DNA of 63,470 nucleotides from an uncultured virus (IMG/VR IMGVR_UViG_2821904334_000002) (Duplodnaviria; Heunggongvirae; Uroviricota; Caudoviricetes). How positions within the stretch are numbered: position 1 is the first letter of the stretch; each line of letters opens with the position of its first letter. The position numbers were made by a program, and so were the translations under genes. Where the stretch lies: the IMG/VR virus record IMGVR_UViG_2821904334_000002, one strand, 5' to 3'. Of this stretch, positions 25,733 through 46,263 are shown one piece after another. Below the pieces are notes generated by a model. The model was not told where the DNA came from. It searched no databases and saw only the letters and a list, made by a program, of their open reading frames with translations.

Positions 25733-25733
25733 G

Positions 25734-26612: not shown

Positions 26613-26629
26613 ATTATGTCTACTCTTAC

Positions 26630-26658: not shown

Positions 26659-26752
26659 AGTACTATATAAGAAATACAAATAAAGGTATAAGTAAAGAGA
26701 CTTATAAGTAGAAGTATTCTAGTTAAAGTAGGAAACTATCCTTATAAGGAGT

Positions 26753-27538: not shown

Positions 27539-27541
27539 TAG

Positions 27542-28885: not shown

Positions 28886-28886
28886 T

Positions 28887-29237: not shown

Positions 29238-29264
29238 GAAACAATAAGGTAAGGAGTCTTTTAG

Positions 29265-29519: not shown

Positions 29520-29522
29520 GAG

Positions 29523-29954: not shown

Positions 29955-30018
29955 AAGAGTTTACTAGTGTAATAGCTTAAAGTATCTAAAACTATTACAA
30001 ATAAATAAGTAAACTCTT
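29955..30018 (+). terminator. Long interrupted hairpin ending the finger array
   Basis: AAGAGTTTACT/AGTAAACTCTT outer arms, TGTAATAG/CTATTACA inner arms. Confidence 0.5.
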
Positions 30019-30038
30019 TAATTTTGTCTTAAACATTA

Positions 30039-30067
30039 TTGACATATACCTAAACTTATGGTATAAT
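30039..30067 (+). promoter_or_regulatory. sigma-A promoter
   Basis: TTGACA-17-TATAAT, spacer ending AAACTTATGG. Confidence 0.85.
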
Positions 30068-30315
30068 AAGTATGTGTTAAGAAAAGGTAGTAAAGAAATA
30101 TACCTATTAAATGTTATAAGAATACATATGACTAACTAACCCTATAATGTGCTAGGAACGTAAATAATAGGTCTGTGCAATTATGGAACGTTTGTCTGTA
30201 GGAAACATAGCTTCATAGTTTAATAGGGTATAAGACAAAAGAGTAAGTAAACTAAACCAATTAAGGGAGGATTGAGATACTAAAAGAGTCGAGGGACTAC
30301 GGTATCGAAAACAAA

Positions 30316-32541
30316 ATGAAGAAATCAGTTAAGAAGCAAGCAGTCGCACTATCCACTACATTAGCAGTTCTAGGTGGAATGCCAGTAGGAGCATTAGCAG
30401 AAGAAACGGTTAAAACTGAGGTAGACCAGTTAAGAGTCTCTGAAAGTGACCAAGTTGAACAGAATAGTCTATATGGTTCTGATTTGCAACTGGAAAACAA
30501 AAAGGAAGAAGTTAAGCAAGAAGTTAAACAAGCAACGGCAGAAGTGAAAACGGAAGTTGCAAAAGAAGAAGTAAAACCAGAAGCTACTACTGAAAACAAA
30601 GTAGTAGAAGTAAAGAAAGAAGAGAAGGTTGAACCTGTTAAACAAGAAGAGGTAAAACAGCCTGTAAAAGAAGAGAAACCGGAAGTTAAGCAAGAAGTGA
30701 AACAACCTCAACAAAAGCAAGAAGTAAAAGAAGAGGTTAAGCCTGAGGTTAAACCGGAAGTTAAACCTGAAGTAAAGCAAGAAAACAAGGAAGTAAAACC
30801 GGAAGTTAAGCAAGAAGAAGCTACACATGAAGAAGCAGGGCATGAGCATAAAACTGTAGAAGATGTGCAAAAAGCTAAAACTGGTGAAGTAACAGAGTTT
30901 GAAGCGTTACAAAACATCCATAATGCTTTTAAAGGTGAAGACGGTAAAGGTGATGGAAGTTCTCGTGAAATCGCACCTAAACGTGCTAAACGTTCATTAG
31001 CTTTCAGCGCACCTTCTCAAACTACACAGAAAAAGGGTTCAATTGCAGGTATTCCTTTCACTGAATGGATTGTTCCAGCAGGAAACTTAGATATTCGTCC
31101 ACAAAACCCTATGAAAGCAAAGTATATTACGATTCACGAAACAGCGAACACAGAACGTGGAGCAAACGCTGAGAATCATGCGAAATACCTTTACAATCAA
31201 GCAACTCAAGGTACTTTCAGAACAGCTTCATGGCATTTCACTGTAGACGATAAAGAAATCTACCAACACTTACCTACAAATGAAAACGGTTGGCACGCAG
31301 GAGACGGTCAAGGTTCAGGGAACATGGAATCTATTGGTATCGAGATTGCAGTTAACCAAGACGGTGATTACAATAAAGCAGTTGAAAACGCTCAAAAACT
31401 TGTTGCTCATTTAATGAAACAAGAAGGTATCAGTGGAGATAACTTACGTAGACACCAACAGTGGAGTGGTAAGAAATGTCCTGATATTATGATTACAAAA
31501 GGTAACTGGAATAACTTTGTCAGTGGTGCAAAAGGATTTGCAGGTCAAGGGGTAGGGATTGATAAACCTCTTGAAGAGAAAGAAGAAACAGTAAATCCAA
31601 ACGAGCATAATCCCGCATCACCTAATATTAAGTTAACGATTAATGGTTATGGGGTAAACGTTCGTAGTGGAGCAGGTCAAGAGCATGGTGTTGTAGATAA
31701 ACTGAACAAAGGTCGTGAGTTCAAGGTATTATCTATTAAAAACGGTTGGTATGAAATCGAAAAAGGTAAATGGGTATACTTTAACCCAAGTTGGATTAAA
31801 CTGACTTATAATGCCTACGATAAACCAGTACAACCTGAGCAAAAACCAGAAGTGAAACCTGAGCAACCAAAACCTGAGGAAAAACCACAAGTACAACAAG
31901 GTAAGAAAATTGTTGTAAACGGTCAAGGGGTACGCCTACGTAGTGGAGCAGGTACAAACCACGGTGTTGTTGGAAAAGCACAATATGGTCGTACTTACGA
32001 TGTATTAGAAGAATCAAACGGTTGGGTGAAAACTTCTGATGGTTGGTTATACAACGATTCTAGTTATATCCGAACAATCAATAATGGTGGAGGAAATTCT
32101 AATCAAGGTGGGAATACTGGTGGAAACCAAGTACAACAAACTGGTAAAAAGATTATTGTAAAAGGTAATGGAGTTCGTATCCGTAGTGGAGCAGGTCAAA
32201 ACCACGGAGTATCAGGCTATGCATCGTATGGTCAAGAGTTCACTGTAGAAGCAGAATCAAACGGTTGGGTGAAAACTTCTAAAGGTTGGATTTACAATGA
32301 TTCTAGCTATATTCAAACTGTAGGTCAAGGTGGAGGTAACTCTAACCATGTACAAGCAGGTAAGAAGATTCAAGTAAACGGTAGTGGTGTTCGTATGCGT
32401 CATGGAGCAGGTTTAAACCACGGTGTTAGCGGATATGCTTCTAAAGGCAAAACATATACTGTACATGCTGAATCTAATGGTTGGGTACAAGTAGACGGTG
32501 GTTGGATTTACAACGACTCTAGTTACATTCGCTCACTATAA
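30316..32541 (+). CDS. Secreted N-acetylmuramoyl-L-alanine amidase (Amidase_2) with EVK(Q/P) low-complexity region and four SH3b domains
   Basis: Signal peptide; ITIHETAN, SWHFTVD, GWHAGDG, SIGIEI, HQ.WSGK.CP; four G.GVR.RSGAG..HG...GW repeats. Confidence 0.9.
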   Translation: MKKSVKKQAVALSTTLAVLGGMPVGALAEETVKTEVDQLRVSESDQVEQNSLYGSDLQLENKKEEVKQEVKQATAEVKTEVAKEEVKPEATTENKVVEVKKEEKVEPVKQEEVKQPVKEEKPEVKQEVKQPQQKQEVKEEVKPEVKPEVKPEVKQENKEVKPEVKQEEATHEEAGHEHKTVEDVQKAKTGEVTEFEALQNIHNAFKGEDGKGDGSSREIAPKRAKRSLAFSAPSQTTQKKGSIAGIPFTEWIVPAGNLDIRPQNPMKAKYITIHETANTERGANAENHAKYLYNQATQGTFRTASWHFTVDDKEIYQHLPTNENGWHAGDGQGSGNMESIGIEIAVNQDGDYNKAVENAQKLVAHLMKQEGISGDNLRRHQQWSGKKCPDIMITKGNWNNFVSGAKGFAGQGVGIDKPLEEKEETVNPNEHNPASPNIKLTINGYGVNVRSGAGQEHGVVDKLNKGREFKVLSIKNGWYEIEKGKWVYFNPSWIKLTYNAYDKPVQPEQKPEVKPEQPKPEEKPQVQQGKKIVVNGQGVRLRSGAGTNHGVVGKAQYGRTYDVLEESNGWVKTSDGWLYNDSSYIRTINNGGGNSNQGGNTGGNQVQQTGKKIIVKGNGVRIRSGAGQNHGVSGYASYGQEFTVEAESNGWVKTSKGWIYNDSSYIQTVGQGGGNSNHVQAGKKIQVNGSGVRMRHGAGLNHGVSGYASKGKTYTVHAESNGWVQVDGGWIYNDSSYIRSL

Positions 32542-32654
32542 GCAATAAGTACCAACAGGGGTAGGGCTATGGGTAAAACTGTAGCCTTTCTCTATAATTC
32601 TATGAAATGTATATACAAATATTCAAAACTAGTAATATTTTTATCACAACAATG

Positions 32655-32683
32655 TTGACATATGGCTAAACTTATGGTATAAT
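32655..32683 (+). promoter_or_regulatory. sigma-A promoter
   Basis: TTGACA-17-TATAAT, spacer ending AAACTTATGG. Confidence 0.85.
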
Positions 32684-32866
32684 AAGTATATAGTAAAGAA
32701 GAGATAACAAAAGAAAATACTAGTATTACTTTGGGAAAACATATTAGTAGATTCAAAGATTCATACTATAACAAGAAAAATCGAGTTAAACAAAAAATAA
32801 CAAAACGAATGGGGGTTCGAGATACTCTATTAAGTCGTAGTAATAGTTGGGGTATCGAACATAGCA

Positions 32867-34894
32867 ATGAAAAAGTCAATTAAGAAGCAAGTAGTCGCAC
32901 TAACAACTGGATTAACAATTCTAGGAAGCATTCCATTAAACGCATTAGCAGACCAAACAGACAAATTACAAGTGGCAACTGGGGAACATTTAAATCAAGG
33001 TTCTAACCTTGCAAACATCGAATTAAAAACACCTGATGTAAAAATTAATGAGTCTGAAATCTCACCAAACGAAAAGGTATTATTAGAAGAATACAAGCAC
33101 AAACATGATACATCGGCTGAAATGGAAAAGATGAAAGAAGCCAAAACGGGTGCAGTAGACCCTAACGAAGCGGTACAAAATGTAGAAAATGCATTTAAAG
33201 ATGTAGACGGTAAGGGTGACGGTAGTTCTCGTGAAATGACACCTAAACGTCAAAAGCGTTCTCTAGCATTTGCACCTGCAAGTCAAACTACAAAACGTTA
33301 TGGTACATTAGCAGGAACTAAATTTGTAGAGTGGATTGTGCCAGCAGGTAACATTGATATCCGCCCACAAAACCCTATGAAAGCTAAATATATTACAATC
33401 CATGAAACTGCAAACACTGAACGTGGTGCAAACGCAGAAGCACATGCAAAGTACTTATATAACCAAGCAACTCAAGGGACATTCCGTACTGCATCATGGC
33501 ACTTTACAGTGGACGATAAACAAATCTATCAACACCTTCCAACGAATGAGAACGGATGGCACGCAGGAGACGGGAATGGACCCGGAAACCGTGAGTCTAT
33601 TGGTATTGAAATCGCTGTAAACCAAGATGGAGACTACAATAAAGCATTAGAAAACGCTAAACGTCTAGCAGGTTACTTAATGAACAAAGAGGGTATCCCT
33701 GCAAGTAACATCGTAAAACATCAACATTGGTCAGGTAAGAAATGCCCAGACATCATGATTTCTCGTGGTAACTTTGCAGGATTCGTACAAGGCATTGAAT
33801 GGTATTCAAGTTTAAATAACAACATTGAAGGAATGTCAGACAAGCAAGAAGACAACAATTCAAATGAAGTAAACCCTGCTGAACCAGTTATGGAACTAGT
33901 AGTAAAAGGTTACGGTATTAATATCCGTAGTGGAGCAGGAATCGAGAATGGGGTAGTTGGTAAAGCAAACGCAGGTGATAAATTCCGAGTATTAGCAGTT
34001 AAAAACGGTTGGTACAAAACAGAAAAAGGTTGGATTTTCTATGATTCAAGTTACATTAAAATTAACTATAATGTAGAAAACCCACTTCCAAAACCTGAGG
34101 AAAAACCAAAACCTGAAGTGAAGCCTGACCCTAAACCTGAGCCACAACCTGAGCCTAAACCACAACCAACTGATGATATTACTGGTGGATGGTTCGAACC
34201 ACATGTACGTGAATTAAACAAACGTGGAATTATGGTTGGTGAAGGAAACGGGGTATTCGCACCATACCGTGCAGTAACTCGTGCGGAATTTGCTAAGTTA
34301 ATCTCTAACTCTTTACAACTTCCAAGTGGCGATGCAAACTTTAAAGATTTAGACCAAGCACACCCAACATTACAAGATGGTATTAAACGTGCTTCAAGTG
34401 CAGGAATCATTAATGGTCGTGGTGACGGTATCTTTGACCCTAACTCACCAATTACTCGTGAAGAGTCAGCTATCATGGTAGACAAAGCGTTACAATACAA
34501 AGGTATTAAAGGTGATGCTTCTGTACCATTAAAATTCCGAGACAAACATCTTATCAACTACAAAGAAAACGTTACAAGACTATATAGTTTAGGTATCGCT
34601 AACGGAAATGAGAATGGTGAGTTCAGCCCACAAGGAACAACAACTCGTGGTGAGTCAGCCGCATTCCTAGTTAGAATGTTAAACGTAATGGAAGAAACAA
34701 AAGTAATTGGAACAGCTTACATTGACCAAGATATTGAAGTACATGCTGAAAGTGGAAACTGGACTGATGTAGTTCGTACATTAACAAAAGGAAATACAGT
34801 AAACGTATATGCAGAGCATGGAGCTTGGATTCAAATTGGTAAAAACGAATGGATTAAAAACGATACTAGCAAAATCCGTTATGTAAAAGACTGA
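32867..34894 (+). CDS. Secreted Amidase_2 with SH3b, three SLH domains and a C-terminal SH3b-like domain
   Basis: Same amidase motifs; SLH motifs VTRAEFA, ITREESA, TTRGESA. Confidence 0.9.
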   Translation: MKKSIKKQVVALTTGLTILGSIPLNALADQTDKLQVATGEHLNQGSNLANIELKTPDVKINESEISPNEKVLLEEYKHKHDTSAEMEKMKEAKTGAVDPNEAVQNVENAFKDVDGKGDGSSREMTPKRQKRSLAFAPASQTTKRYGTLAGTKFVEWIVPAGNIDIRPQNPMKAKYITIHETANTERGANAEAHAKYLYNQATQGTFRTASWHFTVDDKQIYQHLPTNENGWHAGDGNGPGNRESIGIEIAVNQDGDYNKALENAKRLAGYLMNKEGIPASNIVKHQHWSGKKCPDIMISRGNFAGFVQGIEWYSSLNNNIEGMSDKQEDNNSNEVNPAEPVMELVVKGYGINIRSGAGIENGVVGKANAGDKFRVLAVKNGWYKTEKGWIFYDSSYIKINYNVENPLPKPEEKPKPEVKPDPKPEPQPEPKPQPTDDITGGWFEPHVRELNKRGIMVGEGNGVFAPYRAVTRAEFAKLISNSLQLPSGDANFKDLDQAHPTLQDGIKRASSAGIINGRGDGIFDPNSPITREESAIMVDKALQYKGIKGDASVPLKFRDKHLINYKENVTRLYSLGIANGNENGEFSPQGTTTRGESAAFLVRMLNVMEETKVIGTAYIDQDIEVHAESGNWTDVVRTLTKGNTVNVYAEHGAWIQIGKNEWIKNDTSKIRYVKD

Positions 34895-34921
34895 ATAAAA
34901 TAATACAATTAAGGACAAACT

Positions 34922-34945
34922 AGCTACAGGTGACTGTAGCTTTTC
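34922..34945 (+). terminator. Intrinsic terminator
   Basis: AGCTACAG-GTGA-CTGTAGCT-TTTC. Confidence 0.8.
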
Positions 34946-34974
34946 CTTTATTAATCTTGTATGGGGTGTAAAAG

Positions 34975-35529
34975 ATGGATAAATTAACAGAAGACTTGTT
35001 AAGAGAAATGTATGTAGAGAAAGGTATGTCAGACCGAGAGATAGGGGATTTATACGGAGTCACAAGAGCCAATATATCTTATCATAGAAAGAAATGGGGT
35101 ATAGAAGGGAAACCCTCTTTATCAAAGAAAGCGATTCAAGACGTACAAAATAAATTAGATTCTTTAGGGTATACAGTAGAGAACATGAAGGAAAAAGATA
35201 CACATCATATATTTGATTTGTTAGTAGATGATATAGTAAGACTCGATATTCGGTCTACAGAAACATTACAAGAGGATACTTTTAGATTTAAGCTATTAGA
35301 TAGTGATAATTCGTGTTTACTAGAATCAGATAATAGACTTCAATTGAAAAATGGTCGAACTAAGAAGATTTTAAGAAACACATGTGATTTTGTAATACTT
35401 GTAGGCTACTTAAAAGGCGTACCGAATTTTTGGGTAATTCCTTCACGAGACCTAAAAGATGATTTAAACGGTATCTCAATCAGACCCTATTCAGATTCTA
35501 GTAAGTATTTAGAGTATAAAGATTCATAG
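34975..35529 (+). CDS. HTH-repeat (x1) + PD-(D/E)XK-like domain protein; stop at the family's conserved C-terminal Trp
   Basis: LTEDLLREMY...SD.EIG..YGV...R..WGI; FDLLV...RLDIR; TCDFVILVGY...FWVIPS. Confidence 0.7.
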   Translation: MDKLTEDLLREMYVEKGMSDREIGDLYGVTRANISYHRKKWGIEGKPSLSKKAIQDVQNKLDSLGYTVENMKEKDTHHIFDLLVDDIVRLDIRSTETLQEDTFRFKLLDSDNSCLLESDNRLQLKNGRTKKILRNTCDFVILVGYLKGVPNFWVIPSRDLKDDLNGISIRPYSDSSKYLEYKDS

Positions 35530-35786
35530 GGTAATATTAGTAAAACCGCTAAGTTGTATAGAGCGAATAAAATAGGCTAATTTTACCAATTAGGGGTAGA
35601 AAAAGTAAAAGGCTTAATGATTTTGATTCCCTAGTAGAGAAAGAGAAACGGATTTATAAGAAATAGGTAAAAAGAAGCATGAAGGTTAAACGAAAAAGAT
35701 AAAGTAAAGAACTATACTCTTTATCCTATTAAATATAAAGTTTAATTACATATACATAGATAAAATATACAAACTAGATAGTAGGA

Positions 35787-36368
35787 GTGGTTAAAGTGGC
35801 AGTAGTTACAGAGCAAGAGTTAAGAAACCTATATGAAGTACAAGGTAAAACAGATAGACAGATTGCAGAAGAGTGTGGGGTAGATAGAACTCGTATCTCG
35901 CAATTACGTAAGCAATGGGGAATTAATACAAGACCTACTGTATTTGACAAAGGTATAAAAGACGTAACAGATAAATTAGAGTCTTTGGGTTTTAAAGTAG
36001 AGAACGTAAAGAAAGAAGATAAAACAGCAAACTATGATTTATTGCTAAATGATAGTATCAAGGTTGAAGTGAGAACATCATCAACTATAGACAGAGGTAG
36101 ACAGCACTTTAGAATAGTAGAACAAGCTTCCACAGGGGTAGTCGAGTCAGATGTTCGTATTAAACTAAAGAATGGTCATTTTAGAAAGTTATTTAGACGA
36201 ACATGTGATTACATTATCTTTGTAGGATATGAAGAAGGAAACATTAACTATTGGGTGATGCGTTCAAGTACGGTTACAGATACGATTCAAAGCCTTGGAC
36301 TAAATATTTCACCATTAGTAACAAGTAAATTCGATGTATGCAGGGATGCGTGGCACACAATTTTATAA
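35787..36368 (+). CDS. HTH-repeat (x1) + PD-(D/E)XK-like domain protein
   Basis: YDLLLN..IKVEVR; TCDYIIFVGY. Confidence 0.7.
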   Translation: MVKVAVVTEQELRNLYEVQGKTDRQIAEECGVDRTRISQLRKQWGINTRPTVFDKGIKDVTDKLESLGFKVENVKKEDKTANYDLLLNDSIKVEVRTSSTIDRGRQHFRIVEQASTGVVESDVRIKLKNGHFRKLFRRTCDYIIFVGYEEGNINYWVMRSSTVTDTIQSLGLNISPLVTSKFDVCRDAWHTIL

Positions 36369-36402
36369 GAGGTAGAGAATATTTAGAAGAGAGGTGATAA
36401 AT

Positions 36403-38745
36403 ATGTCAGTCAGACTATGTAGTATAGAAGGTTGTGAAAACAAGCATGTAGGTAAAGGATATTGTGATAAACATTACAGACAAATGTATAAGTACGGTAG
36501 AATCCTTACAGACGAGGAAGTAGCGGAGTTAAAGAAACAAAAGTACGCAAACAGAAAACCTTCTTCTAGAGTTTATACAAATGCTATATCGAAAGAAGAG
36601 TTAACGAAACTGTATATAGAAGATGATTTGTTAGATACAGAAATAGCAGAACTAAAAGGTGTCTCTAACGGAACAGTAGGTAGGTTACGTAAGAAATATG
36701 GTATCAAAACAAAACCACCTAAGAAACTCTTTACAAAGGAAGAGTTGGTCGAACTCTATGTGAATAGGGGTATGACGGATGAAGAAATCGGAAAACTGAA
36801 AGATGTTGGGTATTACATTATAGGTAATCTAAGAAAAGAATATGGTATCAAAACTTTAAATCGAGTTGTACCAATCGAGAAAAGAATGGTAGCAACTAGA
36901 GAAGAAATGGAAAAACTATACTTAGCTAGAAAACTAAGTGATGCTCAAATATCTGAAATGTTGGGTTGTTCTGTTCATACCGTTCAATTAATGCGTAAAC
37001 ATTATGGTATCGAAACAAGACAAAGAGAGTACATTTTAACGAAAGAACAGTTACATCATTTGTATGTGGTAAAAGGATTAAGTGATTCGGAGATAGCAGA
37101 CCAAATAGGTGTTGTGCAAAGTCATGTAAGTATCATGAGACGAAAGTATGGTATCGAAACAAGGGAGACAATAGATGCCCTTGCAGTACCATATGTTGCA
37201 AGAGTCTTAGAAAATAAGGGGTATCGTGTCTTAAACGTAAGAGAAAAAGACCACTCTTCTTTCTATGACTTACTGGTAAATGATACAGTTCGTATAGATG
37301 TTAGAGCAACAGCTTTTATGCAGGAAGATACATTACGATTTAAATTCTTAGATAAAGATGCATCAAACTATACAGATAGCGATTCAAGACTTTTAGTAGA
37401 TAGTGGTCGTACAAAAAGAAAGCTTTATGAAACATGTGATATCTTGGTATTAGTGGGGTATATAGAAAACAAACCTCATTGTTGGGTAATTCCAGTTAAG
37501 GATTTAAAGCCAAACTTACAAGGTATCGGAATCAGACCGTATTCGGTTCGAAGTAAATACAGTATCTATGAAGAAGCATGGAAGTTAATTAAAGTACCGA
37601 AAGAGATATTAACCAAGAAAGAGTTAGAAAGACTGTATGTAACAGAGAATTTATCAGATAGTAGAATAGCGAAACGAGTTGGAGTAAGTACAGCAACGAT
37701 AGGAAACTTGAGAAGAGCATACGGTATTAAAGCAAAACGAGATGTGCAAGAAATGACAAAGAAAGAGTTAGAGAAACTGTATGTAGACGAAGGTTTAACA
37801 GATAAAGAGATAGCAGAACGAAAAGGTACGTACCCTACAAAGATTAGGCGTCTAAGAGAAAAGTGGGGTATTGAAACAAAGTCTAGAGCTACAATTAGTA
37901 AAGAGGAATTAACTAAACTGTACGTAGATGAAGGAATGTCAGATAAAGAAATATCAAAACAAAAAGATGTATCACTCGAAACTGTGTATCGTTTAAGAAG
38001 AGAATACGGTATCAAATCAAGACCTTCTATACCAATACTAACAAAAGAACAATTGTACCAGTTATACGTTATACAAAGATTATCGGATAGTAAGATAGGA
38101 GACATATATAAGGTATCCAAGACAACAATTGCAAATTTAAGAAAAGAGTATAATATCGAAGCAAACCCTACAATTTCTCTTGTAACTAAAGAACAATTAC
38201 AACATCTGTACGTAGAAAAGGAAATGAGTGATGGTCAAATAGGAAAATTGTTTGGGGTAACTAGAGAATCAATTTTAAAATACAGAAACAAGTATGGTAT
38301 CTCTACAAGACTTACAATAGCAAACAAAGCAATCCAAGACGTAGGAAATCATTTAGTTCAATTGGGTTTTCATATAGTCAATGTAAGAGGGATAGACTAC
38401 GCTTCTTTTTACGATTTACTGTTGAATAATAGACTACGTATAGATATAAGAGCGACTGAATACATGACAAAAGATGGATTCTTTAAGTTTAAATTACTAG
38501 ATAAGGATGAATCAAACTATATAGGTAGTAATTCAAGACTCATTGTAGATAGCGGTAGAACCAAAAGAAACCTACATGATACATGTGATTTCGTTATTTG
38601 CGTAGGGTACTATAATAACAGACCTTACACATGGGTTATACCTTCAAAAGATTTAAGAAAAGACTTACAAGGTATATCAATAAACCCTAATCTAGAAAAC
38701 AGTAGATACTTGAGATATTCGGAAGCTTGGCATCTACTAAGATAA
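36403..38745 (+). CDS. Cys3His finger + 4 HTH + PD-(D/E)XK-like + 5 HTH + PD-(D/E)XK-like fusion protein
   Basis: GAGGTG SD; N-terminal CSIEGC..GYCDKHY; nine KE.L..LY...SD.EI....V.....LR..YGI repeats; two YDLL.N..RID(V/I)R domains. Confidence 0.75.
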   Translation: MSVRLCSIEGCENKHVGKGYCDKHYRQMYKYGRILTDEEVAELKKQKYANRKPSSRVYTNAISKEELTKLYIEDDLLDTEIAELKGVSNGTVGRLRKKYGIKTKPPKKLFTKEELVELYVNRGMTDEEIGKLKDVGYYIIGNLRKEYGIKTLNRVVPIEKRMVATREEMEKLYLARKLSDAQISEMLGCSVHTVQLMRKHYGIETRQREYILTKEQLHHLYVVKGLSDSEIADQIGVVQSHVSIMRRKYGIETRETIDALAVPYVARVLENKGYRVLNVREKDHSSFYDLLVNDTVRIDVRATAFMQEDTLRFKFLDKDASNYTDSDSRLLVDSGRTKRKLYETCDILVLVGYIENKPHCWVIPVKDLKPNLQGIGIRPYSVRSKYSIYEEAWKLIKVPKEILTKKELERLYVTENLSDSRIAKRVGVSTATIGNLRRAYGIKAKRDVQEMTKKELEKLYVDEGLTDKEIAERKGTYPTKIRRLREKWGIETKSRATISKEELTKLYVDEGMSDKEISKQKDVSLETVYRLRREYGIKSRPSIPILTKEQLYQLYVIQRLSDSKIGDIYKVSKTTIANLRKEYNIEANPTISLVTKEQLQHLYVEKEMSDGQIGKLFGVTRESILKYRNKYGISTRLTIANKAIQDVGNHLVQLGFHIVNVRGIDYASFYDLLLNNRLRIDIRATEYMTKDGFFKFKLLDKDESNYIGSNSRLIVDSGRTKRNLHDTCDFVICVGYYNNRPYTWVIPSKDLRKDLQGISINPNLENSRYLRYSEAWHLLR

Positions 38746-38776
38746 ACTAGAAAGTAGAAAGGAGGTAGTTTATCCT

Positions 38777-39937
38777 ATGGCATTTAAACTATCAAAAGAA
38801 GAATTGAAGAAGCTATATGTAGAAGACGGGTTAAATGATAGGCAAATTGCAGAGTTAAAGGGTGTAAATACATCTACAATCAGACGGTTAAGAGTAAAGT
38901 ACGAAATTGAAACAAGGGGTAGACATGCAGTAGACCCGAAGCAAGTATTAACTAAAACAGAATTAGAAAGATTGTATATAGAAGAATGTTTATCAGATAA
39001 AACAATCGGAAAACAAGTAGGTTTAAGTCATTCAACTGTACATCGGTTACGAGTGAAATACGGTATCGAAAGAAGACCTGTAAAAAGAGCCTTTACAGAA
39101 GAAGAGTTAAAACAGCTATACATCAAAGAAGGTAAGACGGATGAGCAGATAGCAAAGTTAAGGGGTATTACGGCAGGAGCAGTAACGCATTTACGGAAGG
39201 TCTATGAGATTGAAGCAATAGAGAGGGCTATCATACCGAAAGAAGTACTACTAGACTTATATGTAAAACAGAAAATGACGGATAAAGAAATAGCGGAACG
39301 ATATAATTGTGCAGAAAAGACGGTTTGTAGTTTAAGAAAAAGATTTGGTATACAAGCAAACAGAAAAAGATGTTCCTTATCGAAAGAGCAAGTATATAAC
39401 TTATATGTAGAAAAAGGTTTAAGTGATAATCAAATTGCAAACTTATATGGTACATATTCCGCTACCATTTCCAGTTTGAGAGAGCGTTATGGTATTCAAA
39501 CAAGGGAAGTCATAACAGACTATTCATTACCTTATGTATACAATATCTTAGTCCAACTAGGATTCCAAGTAGAAAACATGAGACAGCATACACATATGTT
39601 ATTTTATGATTTCTTACTAAACGGTAGAATTCGTATAGATGTAAGAACATCTACTACTTTCTACAATAACAGTATAAACTTCAAATTATTAGATAAGGAT
39701 AATTCAGGCTACACGGAATCAGATGTAAGACTAAGAGTAGATAGTGGAAGAACAAAGAGAAATATACGAAATACGTGTGATTACGTGATTTGTGTGGGGT
39801 ATATAAAAGGAAAACCTCATTGTTGGGTGATACCTTCTAGAGATTTAAAGGAAAACTTACAAGGTATTACAATTAGACCGTATTCAAACAGAAGTAAATA
39901 TAATTTCTATGCAGAAGCTTGGCAACTAATTAAATAA
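38777..39937 (+). CDS. 5 HTH repeats + PD-(D/E)XK-like domain
   Basis: GGAGG SD; five repeats; YDFLLN..IRIDVR; CDYVICVGY...HCWVIPS. Confidence 0.75.
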   Translation: MAFKLSKEELKKLYVEDGLNDRQIAELKGVNTSTIRRLRVKYEIETRGRHAVDPKQVLTKTELERLYIEECLSDKTIGKQVGLSHSTVHRLRVKYGIERRPVKRAFTEEELKQLYIKEGKTDEQIAKLRGITAGAVTHLRKVYEIEAIERAIIPKEVLLDLYVKQKMTDKEIAERYNCAEKTVCSLRKRFGIQANRKRCSLSKEQVYNLYVEKGLSDNQIANLYGTYSATISSLRERYGIQTREVITDYSLPYVYNILVQLGFQVENMRQHTHMLFYDFLLNGRIRIDVRTSTTFYNNSINFKLLDKDNSGYTESDVRLRVDSGRTKRNIRNTCDYVICVGYIKGKPHCWVIPSRDLKENLQGITIRPYSNRSKYNFYAEAWQLIK

Positions 39938-39969
39938 GAAACATTATCTTAAACGAGGTGGTAATCGTT

Positions 39970-40323
39970 ATGTCAGATAAGATGAGTAAGGAAGACTTAA
40001 TAAGAAAGATTCAGCAAAGCCCAAGCGGTAAAGTTTGGAATGAAGATGAAATCAAGCAGTTATTAATGACAAACCCAAAAGCAGTATATAATGGGATTCT
40101 TGCGATTTATAAGCTACAAACGGAAGAAGAGAAGAAAAGTCGTGAGACTCAAGTACAAAACGGTATAGGTTTCAATGCAAACGATAGTGTGATTATGTCT
40201 AGCTTTGCAGAACAGATATTACAAGGTAAGATATTATCACAAAGGCAATTTAGAGTTGCATCAAAACGTATACTCAAATACGTAAATCAATTAACGGATA
40301 TAGCAAACGAGGATTACTATTAA
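39970..40323 (+). CDS. Conserved phage-type hypothetical protein
   Basis: IY..QT.EE...T...NGIGFN..D...SSFAEQ.....LS..Q motif recalled from phage proteins. Confidence 0.6.
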   Translation: MSDKMSKEDLIRKIQQSPSGKVWNEDEIKQLLMTNPKAVYNGILAIYKLQTEEEKKSRETQVQNGIGFNANDSVIMSSFAEQILQGKILSQRQFRVASKRILKYVNQLTDIANEDYY

Positions 40324-40350
40324 GAGTGTTTCACGAAAAGAGGGGTAGTC

Positions 40351-41124
40351 TTGTCTGTGTTAACAGAGGTTGAACTAAGAGAACTGTATGAAATACAAGG
40401 TAAGACAGATAAAGAGATAGCTGAGTCATTAGGTATAAACAGATTAAGAATAACAAGATTAAGAAAGAAATACGGAATAGAGACGAGGTATTCTAATTAT
40501 AAAGGGCGACAACCAAATAAAGAAAAGGATGAGAAACGAAATAGAGAAAAGGATAAGAAACTGGAGAAAGAAATAAGAGATTTGTATGAGGTGCAATGTA
40601 AAACAGATAAAGAAATCGGTAAATTAAAAGGTATGAATAGAGAAAGCGTATCTAGATTACGAAAGCGATTAGGAATCCAAACAAGACCTAAACTTAATGA
40701 GAAAGCAGTACAAGATGTAATAACTAAGTTAAAAACGTTAGGTTATACAGTAGAGAATGTAAAAGAAGTTAATAAGACGGAAACTTATGATTTACTACTA
40801 AATAATCGAATTAAAGTAGATGTTCATTCTTCCTCGTTTGTGGAGAAAAGTAGTATGTATTTTCGATTAGACGAAAAAGAAGAAACAGGTGTAATCGAGT
40901 CAGCTACAAGAATTAGACTCAAAAATGGCAAGTATAGAAAATTATTCAGAAAGACTTGTGATTACATTATATTTATAGGGTATGAGGGTACAAATATTAA
41001 TTTTTGGATTATGGACTCTTCTGATTTACCTGATGAACTTCAAACGATTCGACTTGTTAACGATAAAGCAACAGATAGTAAGTATTCAATCTACAGAGAC
41101 GCATGGAATAAACTAGTAAAGTAA
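40351..41124 (+). CDS. 2 HTH repeats + PD-(D/E)XK-like domain
   Basis: YDLLLNNRIKVDVH; TCDYIIFIGY; closest to 35787-36368. Confidence 0.7.
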   Translation: MSVLTEVELRELYEIQGKTDKEIAESLGINRLRITRLRKKYGIETRYSNYKGRQPNKEKDEKRNREKDKKLEKEIRDLYEVQCKTDKEIGKLKGMNRESVSRLRKRLGIQTRPKLNEKAVQDVITKLKTLGYTVENVKEVNKTETYDLLLNNRIKVDVHSSSFVEKSSMYFRLDEKEETGVIESATRIRLKNGKYRKLFRKTCDYIIFIGYEGTNINFWIMDSSDLPDELQTIRLVNDKATDSKYSIYRDAWNKLVK

Positions 41125-41135
41125 GAGGAATTAAA

Positions 41136-41465
41136 ATGAAACTATGTAATGTAGAGGGTTGTAATAGTAAACATCGAGCAAAAGGTTATTGTCCAAGACA
41201 TTATAGACAAGCTAGAGCAGGGAAAGAGATTACATTGGAGTATATCAATCAAACTGGTAGGATTTGTAGTCTAGATGGATGTAACCGAAAGCATAGAGCA
41301 AAAGGGTTGTGTAAATTACATTATGACAATGCGAGATATATAGTAAGACCCTCTAAACCTGTAAGACTATGTACAGTAGTAGGTTGTACAAGTAAACATC
41401 AAGCAAAAGGAATGTGTTTAAATCATTACAATCAGAAGCGATATAAAGAATTAAAGACGAAGTAA
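41136..41465 (+). CDS. Cys3His finger protein, 3 fingers
   Basis: Three repeats. Confidence 0.8.
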   Translation: MKLCNVEGCNSKHRAKGYCPRHYRQARAGKEITLEYINQTGRICSLDGCNRKHRAKGLCKLHYDNARYIVRPSKPVRLCTVVGCTSKHQAKGMCLNHYNQKRYKELKTK

Positions 41466-41484
41466 GAAAGAAAGGTGTAAGGGG

Positions 41485-41940
41485 TTGGAGACTAGAACTT
41501 GTAGTATAGAAAGGTGTAACGAAAAGCATCAAGCAAAAGGTTATTGTAAACGACACTATCAACAAATTAATACAGGTAGGGAAATAACTCTTAAAGGGGC
41601 AGATAAAACTTGTACAGTTGAAGGTTGTAACAAGAAAACAAAAGCAAAAGGGTTGTGTCCAACTCATTATCAAAGAATGAAATTAACTGGTTCAACGGAA
41701 AAGAAGATTATAGAACAACGTATTTGTAAAGTTGAAACTTGTAATGAGAAGCATTTAGGTAAGAGGTACTGTAGAAGACATTATCATCAATTTAAAACTA
41801 AAGGTAAAGTAACGATTGAAGGTAGATTATCAGATAGAACTTGTAGTGTAGAAGCTTGTAACAATAAGTATCATACAAAAGGAATGTGCCAAAAACATTA
41901 CACTAGATGGTATAGAAACGAGAAAAAGAAAGACAAATAA
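41485..41940 (+). CDS. Cys3His finger protein, 4 fingers
   Basis: Four repeats. Confidence 0.8.
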   Translation: METRTCSIERCNEKHQAKGYCKRHYQQINTGREITLKGADKTCTVEGCNKKTKAKGLCPTHYQRMKLTGSTEKKIIEQRICKVETCNEKHLGKRYCRRHYHQFKTKGKVTIEGRLSDRTCSVEACNNKYHTKGMCQKHYTRWYRNEKKKDK

Positions 41941-41952
41941 GGAGGAAGAAAC

Positions 41953-42246
41953 ATGTTTGTAAGTGAAAGAGGTATAGCTTTAATTACACAAACGAATGAA
42001 GCAAGAATGTTAACGGCTGAGGATTACGAGAAGTGGTACAATCTATACATCATTGAAACAGATGGTACAGTTAAAGGGGTAGAAGATGATAACGAGATTT
42101 TATTTGAGGGTTGGTATGACCATTGCGTTCGACCTGATATTTTTAAGAAACTGGCTGAATCGCTAAATGCTTCATACGATGAAAAGACTTGGAAAGCAGT
42201 CATAGATATGTATGAAGAAATGACAGACTCCAAGTGGGAAGAGTAA
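41953..42246 (+). CDS. Small acidic hypothetical protein
   Basis: GGAGG SD; D/E-rich. Confidence 0.7.
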   Translation: MFVSERGIALITQTNEARMLTAEDYEKWYNLYIIETDGTVKGVEDDNEILFEGWYDHCVRPDIFKKLAESLNASYDEKTWKAVIDMYEEMTDSKWEE

Positions 42247-42274
42247 GATTTACTACTCTTCCTTTTGCATATAC

Positions 42275-42303
42275 TTGACAAATAGTTAAACTTATGGTAT
42301 AAT
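42275..42303 (+). promoter_or_regulatory. sigma-A promoter
   Basis: TTGACA-17-TATAAT, spacer ending AAACTTATGG. Confidence 0.85.
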
Positions 42304-42350
42304 ATAGGTAGAGGAAATACGAGAAATAGCTAGTTGAAAGGGTGAACTAA

Positions 42351-44174
42351 GTGGCAATTAAACCAGATGTATTAGAAGCAATTAATTACTATACAGAGGT
42401 AACTGGTGAGTCGGTATCGCAGTTCTTAGAAGGTATTGATTCATTACTTACAGTAAACGAAGAAGAGTTAACAAATAATGATTGGTTACGTAAACAAATA
42501 GCGAAGCTAATCAAGAATAAAGGGGTATCTCTAGACGAGATTATCAAGAACAAAGATTTATTAATGGCAAAGGATACAAAAGAGGAAGACGGAAGTTTTT
42601 ACACGCCTTTAGAGTGGGCGGCTGAGACTCATAGAATGATAGAAAGATATATTCCGAATTTAGAAGATTATGTTGTATGGGATGCAAGTTGTGGTTCAGG
42701 AAACCTACTAGCTGAGTTACCACCATGTAAAGAGTTATATGTTTCCACATTACATCAAGAAGACGCTGAAATCGTACAGCAACGTTTACCACATGCTCAT
42801 GCATTCCAGTTAGACTTCTTAACAGGAATTGACTACAACGAGTGGGTAACGGAATTTACAGACATTCTACCTGAGGGATTACAACGAGCGTTAAGAAATA
42901 ATGAACCGATACTTTTCTTAATGAACCCACCATATAGTATTACCAACGCTCATAAAACACAAGTTGCAAAACATTTAAAAGCGATTGGTAAAGAGGAACT
43001 TGCTTCTGATTTACTAAGACAGTTCGTATGGCGTGTATATAACTTAGTAGATATTCATGGACTCTCCAATTCATACTTCACATTAATTGGTACAAACAGT
43101 CTTTACATCATGAATTCATGGGAGAGTACAGTAAGAGAAATGCAAGAACATGCAGACTACTTAGAAGGATTTACATTCCCTGCCAGTGAGTTTGCAGGTA
43201 TTGAGAAATCAGTTCAGTGGGGTATCTTCTCTACGATTTGGAAGACAACTGAGTTGCGTACTGTAGAAACTTTACCTAACATTCAAATGACGGCAAAGAA
43301 GAAGGATGAAAACGGAGTTATTTATGATGATGGGGTATTGGATTTTGTATGGGACAAACAATACATGCCAAACTGGATTCAAAGTAAAATAACGAAAGGG
43401 AATCGTATTACAGTTCCAGTTACTTCTGTTAGGGGTGTTCCAAAGGTAGACGCTAATGGAGAAGTATCTACGGTAACAGGGTTAGACAATGCACTTGGTT
43501 ACTTCTTAGTAAAAAGTACATTCAAAGACATTGCTAACTTCAATGGTATTGGTACATTACCGATTACACTTGGTACTGTTCCTGTAACAGAAGAGAATTT
43601 CAAAGACGTATGTGGTTGTTTCGCATTCTTATCTACATACAAGAATGATTTCAATGATTTAGCAAGACCTTTTAACGAACCACATACAGGTTCAGATGAG
43701 TATCGTGAGTGGATAGCAAACAGTATCTTATTCTCTATATGTGCAAGAAAAGGGTATATGTTCTCTGTTCGAAACATTGAGTTTAATAGAGAAATCAATA
43801 GTGTAAACTCTACTATCTTCCCATTCTCACATGAACAGGTAAGAGAGTACTGTCAAGATGAGAAGGTACTAAAAGACTTAGAAGAAAACCTAGTAGATAA
43901 TTCTTACTTCCTAAACTTAATAGAAGAATCTATGCCTTATGCTTGGGAAGGGGTATTGAACCTTTACAATGCAGTAACGAACTTCATTAAGCAGTCTTAT
44001 AATTACAGACATACAATGGATTACGAAGGAAGTACAGTAGCTTGGAACGCTGGATTCCATCAGTTGAAACAAACAGCTATTTGGACAGACGAAATGGAAG
44101 AAGCATATGTACAAGCCTTATCAATCGCACGAGACGAGTTTAGAGAAAGAGTAAAAACTCATTACATCGTCTAA
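42351..44174 (+). CDS. N6-adenine DNA methyltransferase (gamma-class motif order) with a large C-terminal putative target-recognition region
   Basis: GSFYTP (motif X), VWDASCGSGNLL (motif I), LDFL, MNPPY (motif IV). Confidence 0.85.
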   Translation: MAIKPDVLEAINYYTEVTGESVSQFLEGIDSLLTVNEEELTNNDWLRKQIAKLIKNKGVSLDEIIKNKDLLMAKDTKEEDGSFYTPLEWAAETHRMIERYIPNLEDYVVWDASCGSGNLLAELPPCKELYVSTLHQEDAEIVQQRLPHAHAFQLDFLTGIDYNEWVTEFTDILPEGLQRALRNNEPILFLMNPPYSITNAHKTQVAKHLKAIGKEELASDLLRQFVWRVYNLVDIHGLSNSYFTLIGTNSLYIMNSWESTVREMQEHADYLEGFTFPASEFAGIEKSVQWGIFSTIWKTTELRTVETLPNIQMTAKKKDENGVIYDDGVLDFVWDKQYMPNWIQSKITKGNRITVPVTSVRGVPKVDANGEVSTVTGLDNALGYFLVKSTFKDIANFNGIGTLPITLGTVPVTEENFKDVCGCFAFLSTYKNDFNDLARPFNEPHTGSDEYREWIANSILFSICARKGYMFSVRNIEFNREINSVNSTIFPFSHEQVREYCQDEKVLKDLEENLVDNSYFLNLIEESMPYAWEGVLNLYNAVTNFIKQSYNYRHTMDYEGSTVAWNAGFHQLKQTAIWTDEMEEAYVQALSIARDEFRERVKTHYIV

Positions 44175-44191
44175 GTAAGGGGTAGACAGCT

Positions 44192-44377
44192 ATGTATTAT
44201 GGTTATAAGTGTGAAACAGGTTGCGGTCACATAACACTTACAGATAAGTATTACAAAACGAAACTTACTCATTGTGCAGTATGTGGAGAAAAGAAAACCT
44301 TAGTATACATCGGAGAGTTTGAAGCAAAAGCAGTAACTTCAAACTCTCTAGTTAGTAGAAACAGAAGTAGAAAGTAG
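44192..44377 (+). CDS. Small zinc-ribbon protein
   Basis: YKCETGCG...CAVCG. Confidence 0.6.
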   Translation: MYYGYKCETGCGHITLTDKYYKTKLTHCAVCGEKKTLVYIGEFEAKAVTSNSLVSRNRSRK

Positions 44378-44386
44378 GTACGAGTT

Positions 44387-45583
44387 ATGGGGTTAGATTT
44401 ATTGTTTGACAGACAAAGTATGATGAAGGTTGTCTTGTTGTATACACCTTCTAACTCTTTATCTATGTACGTTCAAGACGTGATTAAGAATAGGTTTCAG
44501 ATTAATAAAGATAGTGTTAAAGATATTGGGACGAAGAAGGAATTACAAGAAACAAAGGAGTTATACAATGTAGTTCCTTTCTTATCCCAAAAGTGGCTAT
44601 TTCACGTAAAGAACGGAGATAAAGCAGTTAAGAAAGACTTTTTAAGGTTAGCTAGAGGAAATACAAGTGGCGTTTATTTTATTGAGTTTGAAAACTACAG
44701 AAACTATAAATTCGTAAAAGATTTACTAAGAAATGAGCCTGGTACATTAGACTTATATATGGGTTGGTTAAAACGTGCTGACTTTGAACTGTTATATCGT
44801 CATTTGGTGGTCGGTTTCAAGGGGTATGAGTTAACAAAAACATTACAAGACTTTGTAGTTCGTGGGTATGCGAATGAGATTGAAGCCGTGTTTAAGTTAT
44901 TCGTAGAGTTACGTGATGGTAGAGAAGTTAAAACACGTAAAGAAATCATAGACATATGTGGGATTAACTCAAATACCGTAGATAACTTTATGTTTAGTTT
45001 ATTAAAAGAACCACCAGTGAAAGATAAAGGGTTAAAGAGGTACATGTCAAACCGTATTAAGGAAGCGGTAGATTTAGCTGAAAAGTATACATGGTCTACC
45101 TTTAGAAACTATTTAAAGCGTTCAGTACGAGCGTGTATAGATGTAAAACTGATATTAAGTAGTGGAGAGATATATGATAACATTCGGAACTATGAGAACG
45201 AAGGTTATGATATGAAGAAGTTAAGAAGGTTGCAACGTTATCTTCCACAATTAAAAGAAATTAGTATGGCAAGACTATTAGGGTTGTTAGACAATATAGA
45301 AAAAAGTGTATGGTACACTGATTTGGAATTTCTAAACTTCTTCTTTAATTACATGTTATATAAATATAACTCGAATAAGGGAGTAAAGAAACTGATATTA
45401 GAAGCTAGAGCATTAGTGAAACAAAAGGAGAATGAAGCTAAATCAAAACCAAAAGAAAAGAGAGTCATCATGCAAACACATTCACCTGACAAGGAAGATA
45501 ATGTGAAACCTATGACAAGGAAAGATGAAAATGATAGGGTGCAAGTGAGAGACTTCTTTAGGAGGAAATTAAGTAATGAATGA
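44387..45583 (+). CDS. Possible clamp-loader delta (HolA-like) subunit
   Basis: Size and pattern (PFLSQKWLF, helical lid/collar, no Walker A) resemble delta subunits; weak. Confidence 0.4.
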   Translation: MGLDLLFDRQSMMKVVLLYTPSNSLSMYVQDVIKNRFQINKDSVKDIGTKKELQETKELYNVVPFLSQKWLFHVKNGDKAVKKDFLRLARGNTSGVYFIEFENYRNYKFVKDLLRNEPGTLDLYMGWLKRADFELLYRHLVVGFKGYELTKTLQDFVVRGYANEIEAVFKLFVELRDGREVKTRKEIIDICGINSNTVDNFMFSLLKEPPVKDKGLKRYMSNRIKEAVDLAEKYTWSTFRNYLKRSVRACIDVKLILSSGEIYDNIRNYENEGYDMKKLRRLQRYLPQLKEISMARLLGLLDNIEKSVWYTDLEFLNFFFNYMLYKYNSNKGVKKLILEARALVKQKENEAKSKPKEKRVIMQTHSPDKEDNVKPMTRKDENDRVQVRDFFRRKLSNE

Positions 45584-45959
45584 TTCATATGTTAAGTTTT
45601 TAAACCGATTACAAGAAGAAACAGGTATCAAGAAAGTAGGAGAACTACTAGATAGTATGTCACCTTTACAAGAGAAGGTCTTTATGATTATTAGGGGTAT
45701 GGGAGACGTGGAATTCCACGTCCAACCTGAATTAAAACCCGTTGTAACTTCCTGTATGGCTAATTTAAGTAATGTTTATGATATGATTGAACCGGATGGA
45801 AGTATCAATAAAAACCTACGATTTGTATTAAACGGTATGAAGAATGATTTAACTACGATTCATTATAAAGCAGATAAAGAAACAGTACGAAATAAAGCTT
45901 TTCACTCATTAAATGAATTGAAGTTTTTAGATTTACAATTACAGAAACAAGGTAAATAG
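45576..45959 (+). CDS. Hypothetical protein
   Basis: AGGAGG SD; overlaps the upstream stop. Confidence 0.7.
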   Translation: MNDSYVKFLNRLQEETGIKKVGELLDSMSPLQEKVFMIIRGMGDVEFHVQPELKPVVTSCMANLSNVYDMIEPDGSINKNLRFVLNGMKNDLTTIHYKADKETVRNKAFHSLNELKFLDLQLQKQGK

Positions 45960-45969
45960 GAGGGTAAAC

Positions 45970-46263
45970 ATGAAACTTGATAAGATAGAACGTAAGTTAA
46001 ATGCATTATACATGGATTTGAAGTATGCTCAACTATTTACATCAGAAGATAGCGTAACAGATGAAGTAAATAAAATTATGGAGAACATAAAGGCTATTAT
46101 TGTTAAACCAAAAGAAAAGTTAACAGAATCATCTTTAAAGGAAATTGCACAACAATTAGACTTAGTTTTAAAAGAAGTTTATTATGGTCAAAATGTAGTA
46201 AACCTGTCAGAAGCAAAAGATAGTTTACATGAGATTATTACAAACTTAGAAAAGCTAAATTAA
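45970..46263 (+). CDS. Hypothetical helical protein
   Basis: GGAGG SD. Confidence 0.7.
   Translation: MKLDKIERKLNALYMDLKYAQLFTSEDSVTDEVNKIMENIKAIIVKPKEKLTESSLKEIAQQLDLVLKEVYYGQNVVNLSEAKDSLHEIITNLEKLN

Follow-up and report, generated by a model that had tools for sequence, protein, structure and literature searches.

What is the function of five paralogous open reading frames (ORFs) at positions 34975-41124 of IMG/VR virus record IMGVR_UViG_2821904334_000002, a 63,470-nucleotide (nt) stretch of DNA from an uncultured virus (hereafter the window), each of which bears N-terminal helix-turn-helix (HTH) repeats and a C-terminal domain with a nuclease fold? A preliminary description of the locus had proposed a modular targeting system resembling nucleases built on transcription activator-like effectors (TALEs). 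The comparisons reported here place the C-terminal domain with the homing endonuclease I-Ssp6803I, and the cluster is an unusual offshoot of an established class of selfish genes that cut DNA; it is neither a new system nor TALE-like. Its unusual features are the length of the HTH arrays, a conserved double-nuclease fusion (gene g3), a Lys-to-Arg active site, and expansion on plasmids of the pXO16 type. We assign a probability of roughly one half to the reading that the five proteins act, or recently acted, as site-specific homing-type endonucleases, and a similar one to the cluster being a lineage-specific set of homing-endonuclease-type genes, free-standing and carried by a Bacillus cereus group conjugative megaplasmid that resembles pXO16.

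Organization of the cluster

The five genes lie on the + strand, as do nearly all ORFs of the window, between a gene for an amidase with SLH domains (32867-34894) and a methyltransferase-like gene (42351-44174). Their layout, with lengths in amino acids (aa) and PHROG families where assigned, is as follows.

34975-35529, +: g1, 184 aa; one HTH repeat and an I-Ssp6803I-like domain (35116-35526); phrog_12058, E 8.5e-76
35787-36368, +: g2, 193 aa; one HTH repeat and an I-Ssp6803I-like domain (35934-36365); phrog_12058, E 6.2e-64
36394-38745, +: g3, 783 aa; a single ORF with two full modules, each an HTH array plus a domain
about 36418-36490, +: zinc ribbon of g3, a Cys/His motif at the start of the gene
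36583-37170, +: g3 HTH array a, four repeats
37165-37590, +: g3 domain a
37606-38316, +: g3 HTH array b, five repeats
38308-38742, +: g3 domain b
38777-39937, +: g4, 386 aa; five HTH repeats (38786-39511) and an I-Ssp6803I-like domain (39503-39934)
39958-40323, +: g5, 121 aa, between g4 and g6 and unrelated to the paralogues; phrog_21015, unknown function
40351-41124, +: g6, 257 aa; two HTH repeats and a domain (40690-41121); own ribosome-binding site

The repeat counts that the preliminary description had given for g1, g2, g3, g4 and g6 (1, 1, 4+5, 5 and 2, a total of 18) agreed with the ORFs and with profile searches of the window, which covered every stop-to-stop frame of 40 aa or more in six-frame translation, at a level far beyond chance. 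A profile of the 18 repeats found 18 domains at E ≤3e-19, all in the five ORFs; outside them no frame of the window matched significantly, a single insignificant match having E 9. Each array ends, as had been described, in a domain of ~140 aa, and a profile of the six such domains gave exactly six matches in the window, all within the five genes. The modular architecture with a variable number of repeats is likewise borne out, the count per array running from 1 to 5.

All five proteins (g1-g4 and g6) were assigned to phrog_12058, which is annotated as of unknown function. Each nuclease-like gene is a separate ORF with its own start, lying between other ORFs, and because no Rfam family, hence no intron, was found in 32000-44500, the genes are of the free-standing type. 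The zinc-ribbon motif of g3 is the same as that in two genes downstream of the cluster, z1 and z2 (repeat family D4, 8 copies). Neither this ribbon nor an early stop codon in g1, described below, had featured in the preliminary description.

The C-terminal domain is a diverged relative of I-Ssp6803I

The six domains were aligned over 147 columns, of which 17 are invariant, and are 34-49% identical to the first. An AlphaFold2 (AF2) model of the g4 domain was of high confidence (predicted local distance difference test score, pLDDT, 94.0; predicted template-modelling score, pTM, 0.88). When it was compared with the PDB by Foldseek, all four matches at E ≤0.001 were chains of 2OST, the structure of I-Ssp6803I (E 3.9e-5 to 2.8e-4; template-modelling score, TM, 0.62-0.69). 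VIA-align, run over 48,161 chains, gave 2ost_A a Z score of 15.1 (130 residues aligned, root-mean-square deviation 2.7 Å); the runner-up was Hjc (1gef, Z 9.4), and Vsr (1cw0) reached merely Z 3.7. The restriction-endonuclease-like alpha-beta-beta-beta-alpha-beta core of the domain superposes on 2OST.

Sequence intermediates connect the window domains to the same family. The six-domain profile retrieved 131 cluster representatives at E ≤1e-3 among 1.84 billion (clusters at 50% identity), and two of the weakest of these matches, P0131 and P0129, pass the Pfam model PF11645 (at E 5.6e-23 and 4.8e-13, respectively), the 'ssp6803i' group in the PD-(D/E)XK survey of Steczkiewicz et al. 2012 (PMC3424549). 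P0131 aligned to 2OST_A by phmmer at E 8.5e-12, with a series of motifs common to the window domains: YDL(V/L), basic-x-(Q/D/E)-x-(K/R), a D(F/Y)-hydrophobic strand, (I/V)P and (E/D)AW. A comparison by hhalign of the six window domains with seven stand-alone members, which had themselves been retrieved with the window profile and of which two pass PF11645, gave a probability of 99.5% (E 2.5e-22, 127 columns). In an alignment of 87 sequences, PF11645 was reached by seven of the 87 relatives, the best at E 9e-6. We conclude from fold model, intermediates and profile comparison that the C-terminal domain is a diverged relative of I-Ssp6803I, in the PF11645 family.

How the cluster differs from known endonucleases

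The preliminary description had recognized no named system with this layout. That view gave way: the domain belongs to the I-Ssp6803I/PF11645 family, the proteins to phrog_12058, and the layout is known in I-Bth0305I and Hef. The proteins largely match the free-standing homing endonucleases, a match that the description had itself named as one that would speak against its proposal.

I-Ssp6803I, from Synechocystis (2OST; PF11645, PDDEXK_5), shares its fold and motifs with the window domains, including the Asp of the PD motif and an acidic or amide residue two positions before K/R. According to an account of the enzyme it consists of one domain, has its gene in a group I intron and reads its site as a tetramer (PMC3384342). 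The window proteins, unlike it, are free-standing and carry 1-5 N-terminal HTH modules, and one of them has two nuclease domains; their Lys position is R or H, and a beta-hairpin insertion of ~25 residues (motif ES..R..L.NGR..K) lies in the middle of the domain. I-Ssp6803I is the sole experimentally characterized PD-(D/E)XK homing endonuclease named in the literature cited here, and it is without separate DNA-binding modules.

A closer likeness in layout is provided by I-Bth0305I, which is described as a dimer with two N-terminal NUMOD/HTH repeats, a C-terminal Vsr-like nuclease and a footprint of ~60 bp (PMC3239194). I-Bth0305I and Hef, found in Bacillus thuringiensis phage 0305phi8-36 and in T4-like phages, are homing endonucleases of the EDxHD, Vsr-like family. 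Like these, the window proteins have tandem HTH-type modules at the N terminus and a nuclease of the PD-(D/E)XK superfamily at the C terminus, and they come from phage or plasmid elements of the same host group. Unlike these, their catalytic domain is of another family (Z 3.7 for Vsr vs. 15.1 for I-Ssp6803I), and their arrays have up to five repeats in free-standing genes, whereas I-Bth0305I has two and is intron-encoded. By analogy, the HTH modules of the window proteins can be compared with the NUMOD/HTH modules that phage homing endonucleases carry.

The enzymes I-TevI and I-HmuI, like other modular phage homing endonucleases with NUMOD modules, have an N-terminal GIY-YIG or HNH cartridge followed by C-terminal DNA-binding modules, and their genes either stand free or are borne by introns. 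The window proteins resemble them in coupling a catalytic cartridge to strings of small DNA-binding modules that would track along a long site, and in presence/absence polymorphism, but the order is reversed, with the modules N-terminal and the cartridge C-terminal.

The HTH arrays

The 18 repeats aligned without gaps over 46 residues, in agreement with the ~48-aa consensus reported earlier; the consensus is ..TKEEL..LYV..GLSD.EIA...GV...TI..LRK.YGIETR, with a unit length of 46-48 aa. Mean pairwise identity is 39%, and each repeat is only 39-61% identical to its closest partner among the 18. Assignment of the repeat as an HTH was confirmed by matches to Pfam HTH_23 (g3, E 1.1e-30; g4, E 5.2e-17) and by an AF2 model of the g4 array, in which five three-helix units are joined by flexible linkers (pLDDT 82.8, pTM 0.32). 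The most variable columns of the alignment are the start and interior of helix 3, the expected recognition helix of the repeat; the scaffold is conserved.

A Foldseek search of the PDB with the model of the five-HTH array returned nothing at E ≤0.001. Among the non-significant matches the highest-ranking were to a designed 'CAP repeat' (8vd6, E 0.05), to Mos1 and SETMAR in their bipartite DNA-binding domains, and to Cbp1, which suggests, short of significance, that the modelled array is a homeodomain-like tandem HTH. The CRISPR-repeat-binding protein Cbp1 was considered as a relative and dropped as a generic tandem-HTH similarity: g4 matched NCBIfam HTH_Cbp1 at E 1.8e-8, far under the cut-off. 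In the Pfam scan of the window proteins, NUMOD models were absent from the matches and DUF559 was not matched. The HTH part of g4 matches genes annotated 'Hef-like homing endonuclease' in Vibrio phages.

TALE repeats are near-identical units of 33-35 aa with a two-residue specificity code. Could the HTH arrays embody a programmable code of this kind, with a handful of variable residues setting the fixed short DNA word that each repeat recognizes and with shuffling of repeats producing new arrays? The concentration of variability at the start and interior of helix 3 within a conserved scaffold, the range of array lengths (1 to 5) and the exchange of whole modules between plasmids would all suit such a code. 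However, the repeats are old and diverged rather than near-identical, each unit is a three-helix HTH of the ordinary type, the five repeats of g4 recur in its pXO16 orthologue, and in I-Bth0305I the HTH/NUMOD contacts are described as largely non-specific, with most of the specificity coming from the nuclease domains (PMC3239194). We therefore regard a TALE-like code as highly improbable. What the window proteins share with TALE nucleases (a TALE array fused to FokI) is only the general idea of a repeat array ahead of a nuclease domain that would have to pair before it cuts; the repeat is an HTH of 46-48 aa with 39% identity, the nuclease is of another family, and a code per repeat is without support. 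The TALE-nuclease likeness drawn in the preliminary description accordingly survives as a statement about architecture, and fails for the repeat, which would read several bp instead of following a rule of one repeat to one base.

The wider family and exchange of modules

Stand-alone proteins of ~190 aa, which combine a single HTH with the domain, make up most of the 131 relatives. P0007 and P0057 have three-repeat HTH arrays; only pXO16-like sequences showed arrays of four or five repeats or the double-nuclease protein. Both halves of the architecture recur with other partners. The same nuclease domain is joined to HNH_repeat, the homing-endonuclease-associated repeat PF18780, in P0127 (E 6.7e-14), to zinc ribbons and an integrase-SAM-like region in P0073 and P0040, and to other repeats elsewhere; HTH arrays of this kind are coupled to LAGLIDADG_3 in P0135 and to a DUF559/Vsr-like domain in P0138.

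Scans with the six-domain profile found two loci in viral contigs and none in genome contigs. In phage contigs related to contig L001, a gene with two or four copies of another repeat and the same nuclease domain lies between an SSB-like (single-stranded-DNA-binding-protein-like) gene and an AAA_24 gene, a slot that is empty in L001; the family gene of L001 sits amid phage replication genes. Family clusters with traceable context come from phages and plasmids, and most clusters are without source information. A megablast search with 34000-42500 had no match in 50,697 phage records, and tblastn with the g2 domain and a canonical relative, P0011, matched none of the same records at that sensitivity. 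Among 72,556 plasmids, tblastn with g2 hit 11 records, namely ten copies of pXO16 and one Bt407 plasmid match of 26% identity. This mixing of cartridges and modules, together with positional polymorphism, is typical of free-standing homing endonuclease genes.

Phage contigs in which such a gene lies between an SSB-like and an AAA_24 gene include L007, L008 and L009. L007 (7159-8262) has four copies of a ~55-aa repeat (..RMP(S/T)..E.......L...I...GG...WA..L.L) before a short nuclease domain, and L008 and L009 (7024-7749) have two; their nuclease domain is canonical (Glu/Asp/Asp-x-Lys). A resemblance by eye of the L007/L008 repeats to HNH_repeat was unconfirmed by Pfam.

The family context also bears on the defence role considered in the preliminary description, in which the arrays would aim the nuclease at rival plasmids, phages or host DNA as a weapon or defence module. 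The architecture would permit such targeting, and the adjoining 607-aa ORF is N6-methyltransferase-like, with weak matches to N6_Mtase and MmeI_Mtase and to PADLOC mad2 (E 2.3e-5); I-Ssp6803I-like DREN domains are, moreover, reported to be used by the SPARDA defence system (bioRxiv 10.1101/2025.04.08.647717). Nevertheless, a search with the models of PADLOC-DB 2.0, a library in which absence is not proof, was unconvincing: REase_II matched the nuclease-like domain of g2 at E 6.3e-4 (17.4 bits), and the sole stronger match, mad1 (E 1e-8), falls on an HTH stretch of g3. The family has no conserved companion gene for a sensor, an ATPase or immunity, most of its members stand alone, and the L001 gene keeps company with replication genes. 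A role in conflict between elements consequently seems to us improbable.

Comparison with pXO16 reveals signs of mobility and purifying selection

Positions 30000-46000 of the window are 91% identical, over 86% of their length, to ten plasmids of ~350 kb from B. thuringiensis serovar israelensis. Table 2 of a review gives the ~350-kb plasmid of this serovar as the conjugative plasmid pXO16 (PMC6199540), whose uniform gene orientation and many paralogues are taken there to suggest a phage-like nature (PMC6199540). pXO16 has five copies of the domain, every one of them in this cluster, and four of the genes are present in all ten pXO16 records. One segment of the window is missing from the plasmid.

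40324-41113, +: g6-bearing segment, 790 bp; a clean indel starting right after the g5 stop codon

The joint without g6 was also found in contigs of sequencing runs X24 and X21, which are from relatives that share ~8% of the stretch's words. An X24 RNA-seq contig of 17,966 nt (depth 218) spans 37599-40323 and continues across that joint; contigs over g1 and g2 have a depth of about 3. Such unevenness is a hint of transcription in a relative of the pXO16 type, but RNA-library contigs may include DNA and do not allow genes to be ranked, and the depth was not used as evidence.

The N-terminal module of g3 (zinc ribbon, four HTH repeats and first domain) is ~45-50% identical to that of pXO16, the C-terminal module ~94%; the break in identity falls at the border between the modules, and the N-terminal module is a divergent allele. 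The two-module fusion is found in pXO16 as well, and in P0005, a B. cereus fragment. In g4 the five repeats are the same as in the pXO16 orthologue. The g1 stop codon, TAG (35527-35529), stands where the pXO16 orthologue has TGG, and the last 17 residues are lost; the truncated protein is without the conserved terminal (D/E)(A/S)W helix, including its conserved Trp. The window copy of g1 may be impaired by this early stop.

Ratios of nonsynonymous to synonymous substitution rates (dN/dS) against pXO16 were 0.11 for g1, 0.12 for g2, 0.13 for the C-terminal half of g3 and 0.06 for g4, with neighbouring genes at 0.03-0.26. The cluster genes are under purifying selection. The synonymous rate itself (dS) peaks in the genes that flank the g6 indel (g5, 0.63; z1, 0.57); it is 0.22-0.34 in five of the ten genes tested, with g2 (0.52) and g4 (0.45) intermediate. 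The g6 indel, the raised dS at its flanks, the swapped module of g3 and, in phages, positional polymorphism may be read as indirect signs of mobility.

Of the zinc-ribbon genes that follow the cluster, z2 encodes 151 aa in the window but 167 aa in pXO16, with a different repeat content; when 41445-41935 was compared with 11588-12084 of L005, most of z2 was without a collinear DNA match. Zinc-ribbon arrays apparently also turn over quickly.

Active-site residues and the case for a non-catalytic role

Several results weigh against the homing-endonuclease reading. The most direct concern the active site. The PD-(D/E)XK effector of the preliminary description was upheld as to fold by AF2, Foldseek and VIA-align; the lysine of its (D/E)xK motif (position 48), by contrast, is replaced in all six window domains, by R in five and by H in one. 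The helix-1 Glu (E9) is absent from all six. Among the 41 E9-less sequences of the 87-sequence alignment, position 48 is K in 7, R in 8 and M, L, F, I, H, T or V in 26, and a FastTree tree of the domain (midpoint root, supports not inspected) nests the window copies inside a branch without both residues. A non-catalytic role of the domains is, on these residues, quite possible. Family membership was not visible to direct searches: the five window proteins have no match to PF11645 at E ≤0.1 and the g4 domain none at E ≤1, nor do the window domains match any Pfam model directly. The g6 indel could be a deletion as well as an insertion. Strong purifying selection, and the retention of four of the genes in all ten pXO16 records, are no less compatible with a domesticated role than with selfishness. 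Finally, target site, cleavage and homing are features that we infer.

Other residues temper the loss. All six window domains keep D36 and D/E46, and two features are conserved in both branches of the family, a basic residue two positions upstream (R/K44, 87 of 87) and the Asp of the TCD motif (82 of 87). E9 and K48 occur together in 44 of the 87 sequences, and about half of the family has the full Hjc-like tetrad (helix-1 Glu, Asp, Asp/Glu, Lys). The pXO16 orthologue of g3 domain b, as well as P0006, has K where the window has R. In the alignment of P0131 with 2OST_A, I-Ssp6803I itself has Q at the helix-1 position and Q at the (D/E) position, and therefore only the lost Lys is a serious concern; these equivalences rest on that phmmer alignment. 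BamHI and BglII are PD-(D/E)XK enzymes with E or Q instead of the Lys, and we know of no natural PD-(D/E)XK enzyme with Arg in its place. Because the Lys is gone (R/H) and the proteins fall in a branch in which catalytic residues are not conserved, cleavage activity of the window proteins appears uncertain.

An alternative that we take seriously, though we think it somewhat unlikely, is that the proteins are nuclease-dead descendants that bind DNA sequence-specifically, the domain serving as a module for dimerization, tetramerization or DNA clamping and the proteins as regulators of a phage-like gene programme of the plasmid or as site protectors. Replacement of K48 in six of six domains, absence of E9 and membership of a branch with non-basic or hydrophobic residues at position 48 in 26 of 41 E9-less sequences would be expected, as would the dN/dS values of 0.06-0.13 and the stable presence in 10/10 pXO16 records. 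RefSeq, for its part, labels the g3 orthologue 'putative DNA-binding transcriptional regulator', and inactive PD-(D/E)XK homologues that bind nucleic acids are among those surveyed (PMC3424549). However, D36, D/E46 and a basic residue at 48 (R/K/H) are kept across paralogues of 34-49% identity, where relatives have drifted to M/L/F. The gene-sized indel, module swap and phage positional polymorphism resemble the behaviour of mobile genes, and the intergenic DNA of the cluster showed no recurring operator-like motif, the repeat families found being coding ones.

A proposed model for site recognition and spread

Under the homing-endonuclease reading, the short-linked HTH modules would lie along a long asymmetric DNA site and contribute affinity and part of the specificity. 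The nuclease domains would pair as in I-Ssp6803I and I-Bth0305I, in g3 possibly within one chain, and the paired domains would bind the centre of the site and cut there if the R/H-substituted active site still works. Repair from the gene-bearing copy would then spread the gene and nearby markers. DNA binding, domain pairing, cleavage and homing are steps that we infer.

A bolder and, in our estimate, rather unlikely version gives g3 a special part. It would be a single-chain, two-headed nuclease, in which arrays of four and five modules and the zinc ribbon deliver their own domains to the halves of one asymmetric site and the domains pair in-chain; the cluster would be a toolkit whose array-plus-nuclease cassettes are traded whole among plasmids, giving cleavage new targets. 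PD-(D/E)XK homing endonucleases would then have their first branch that is free-standing and array-guided, and Arg might replace the catalytic Lys.

The 131 clusters point to a sizeable uncharacterized branch of the I-Ssp6803I family in which the fold is tethered to HTH or other repeat modules. If active, the window proteins would be compact, modular nucleases for long sites, usable by enzyme engineers, and would help to account for the many paralogues of pXO16 and for its mosaic structure. Inactive proteins would instead clearly exemplify the conversion of homing endonucleases to DNA-binding proteins, with WhiA as a comparable case.

Neighbouring features of the window

The following features flank the cluster.

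34922-34941, +: terminator-like hairpin separating the SLH amidase gene from g1
41136-41465, +: z1, three Cys/His zinc-ribbon repeats without a nuclease domain; DUF5763, phrog_5351
41485-41940, +: z2, four Cys/His zinc-ribbon repeats without a nuclease domain; DUF5763, phrog_5351
42275-42303, +: perfect consensus promoter at the right edge of the cluster, belonging to a repeated promoter element

The promoter element is a ~41-nt promoter-like sequence, TTGACAAAT-N-AAAC-N-TATGGTATAATA, with an extended -10 with TG, of which the window has at least seven copies. They lie at 5296, 13907, 24965, 42270, 56719, 57985 and 59802, all on the + strand, and none is inside 34975-42269; the nearest promoter of the element upstream of the cluster is at 32655-32683. 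The same element occurs at several places on long contigs of the related sequencing runs.

A second paralogue expansion occupies 19683-29948 and 41136-41940, where at least 12 ORFs consist of 2-5 copies of a ~35-40-aa zinc-ribbon repeat (C..GC..KH.AKG.C..HY). The repeat matches DUF5763 and the N-terminal part of phrog_5351 and phrog_1271 (both labelled 'HNH endonuclease'); a Pfam scan of these ORFs found no nuclease domain.

Directly after the cluster, with its own perfect promoter, comes the 607-aa ORF (42351-44174), whose protein is 99% identical to the pXO16 orthologue. Its matches to N6_Mtase (E 7e-4) and MmeI_Mtase (E 2e-3) are weak, and like its PADLOC mad2 match they indicate that it may be a DNA methyltransferase. 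On the other side of the cluster are two large cell-wall hydrolase genes, one at 30316-32541 with endolysin and amidase PHROG matches and one at 32867-34894 with Amidase_2, SH3_3 and three SLH domains; both are phage-lysin-like genes on a plasmid. Amid the zinc-ribbon genes, a 109-aa ORF (23421-23750) matches only the last 33 positions of Pfam Fic/DOC (E 4.4e-5) and is perhaps either a Fic fragment or a small protein related to Fic.

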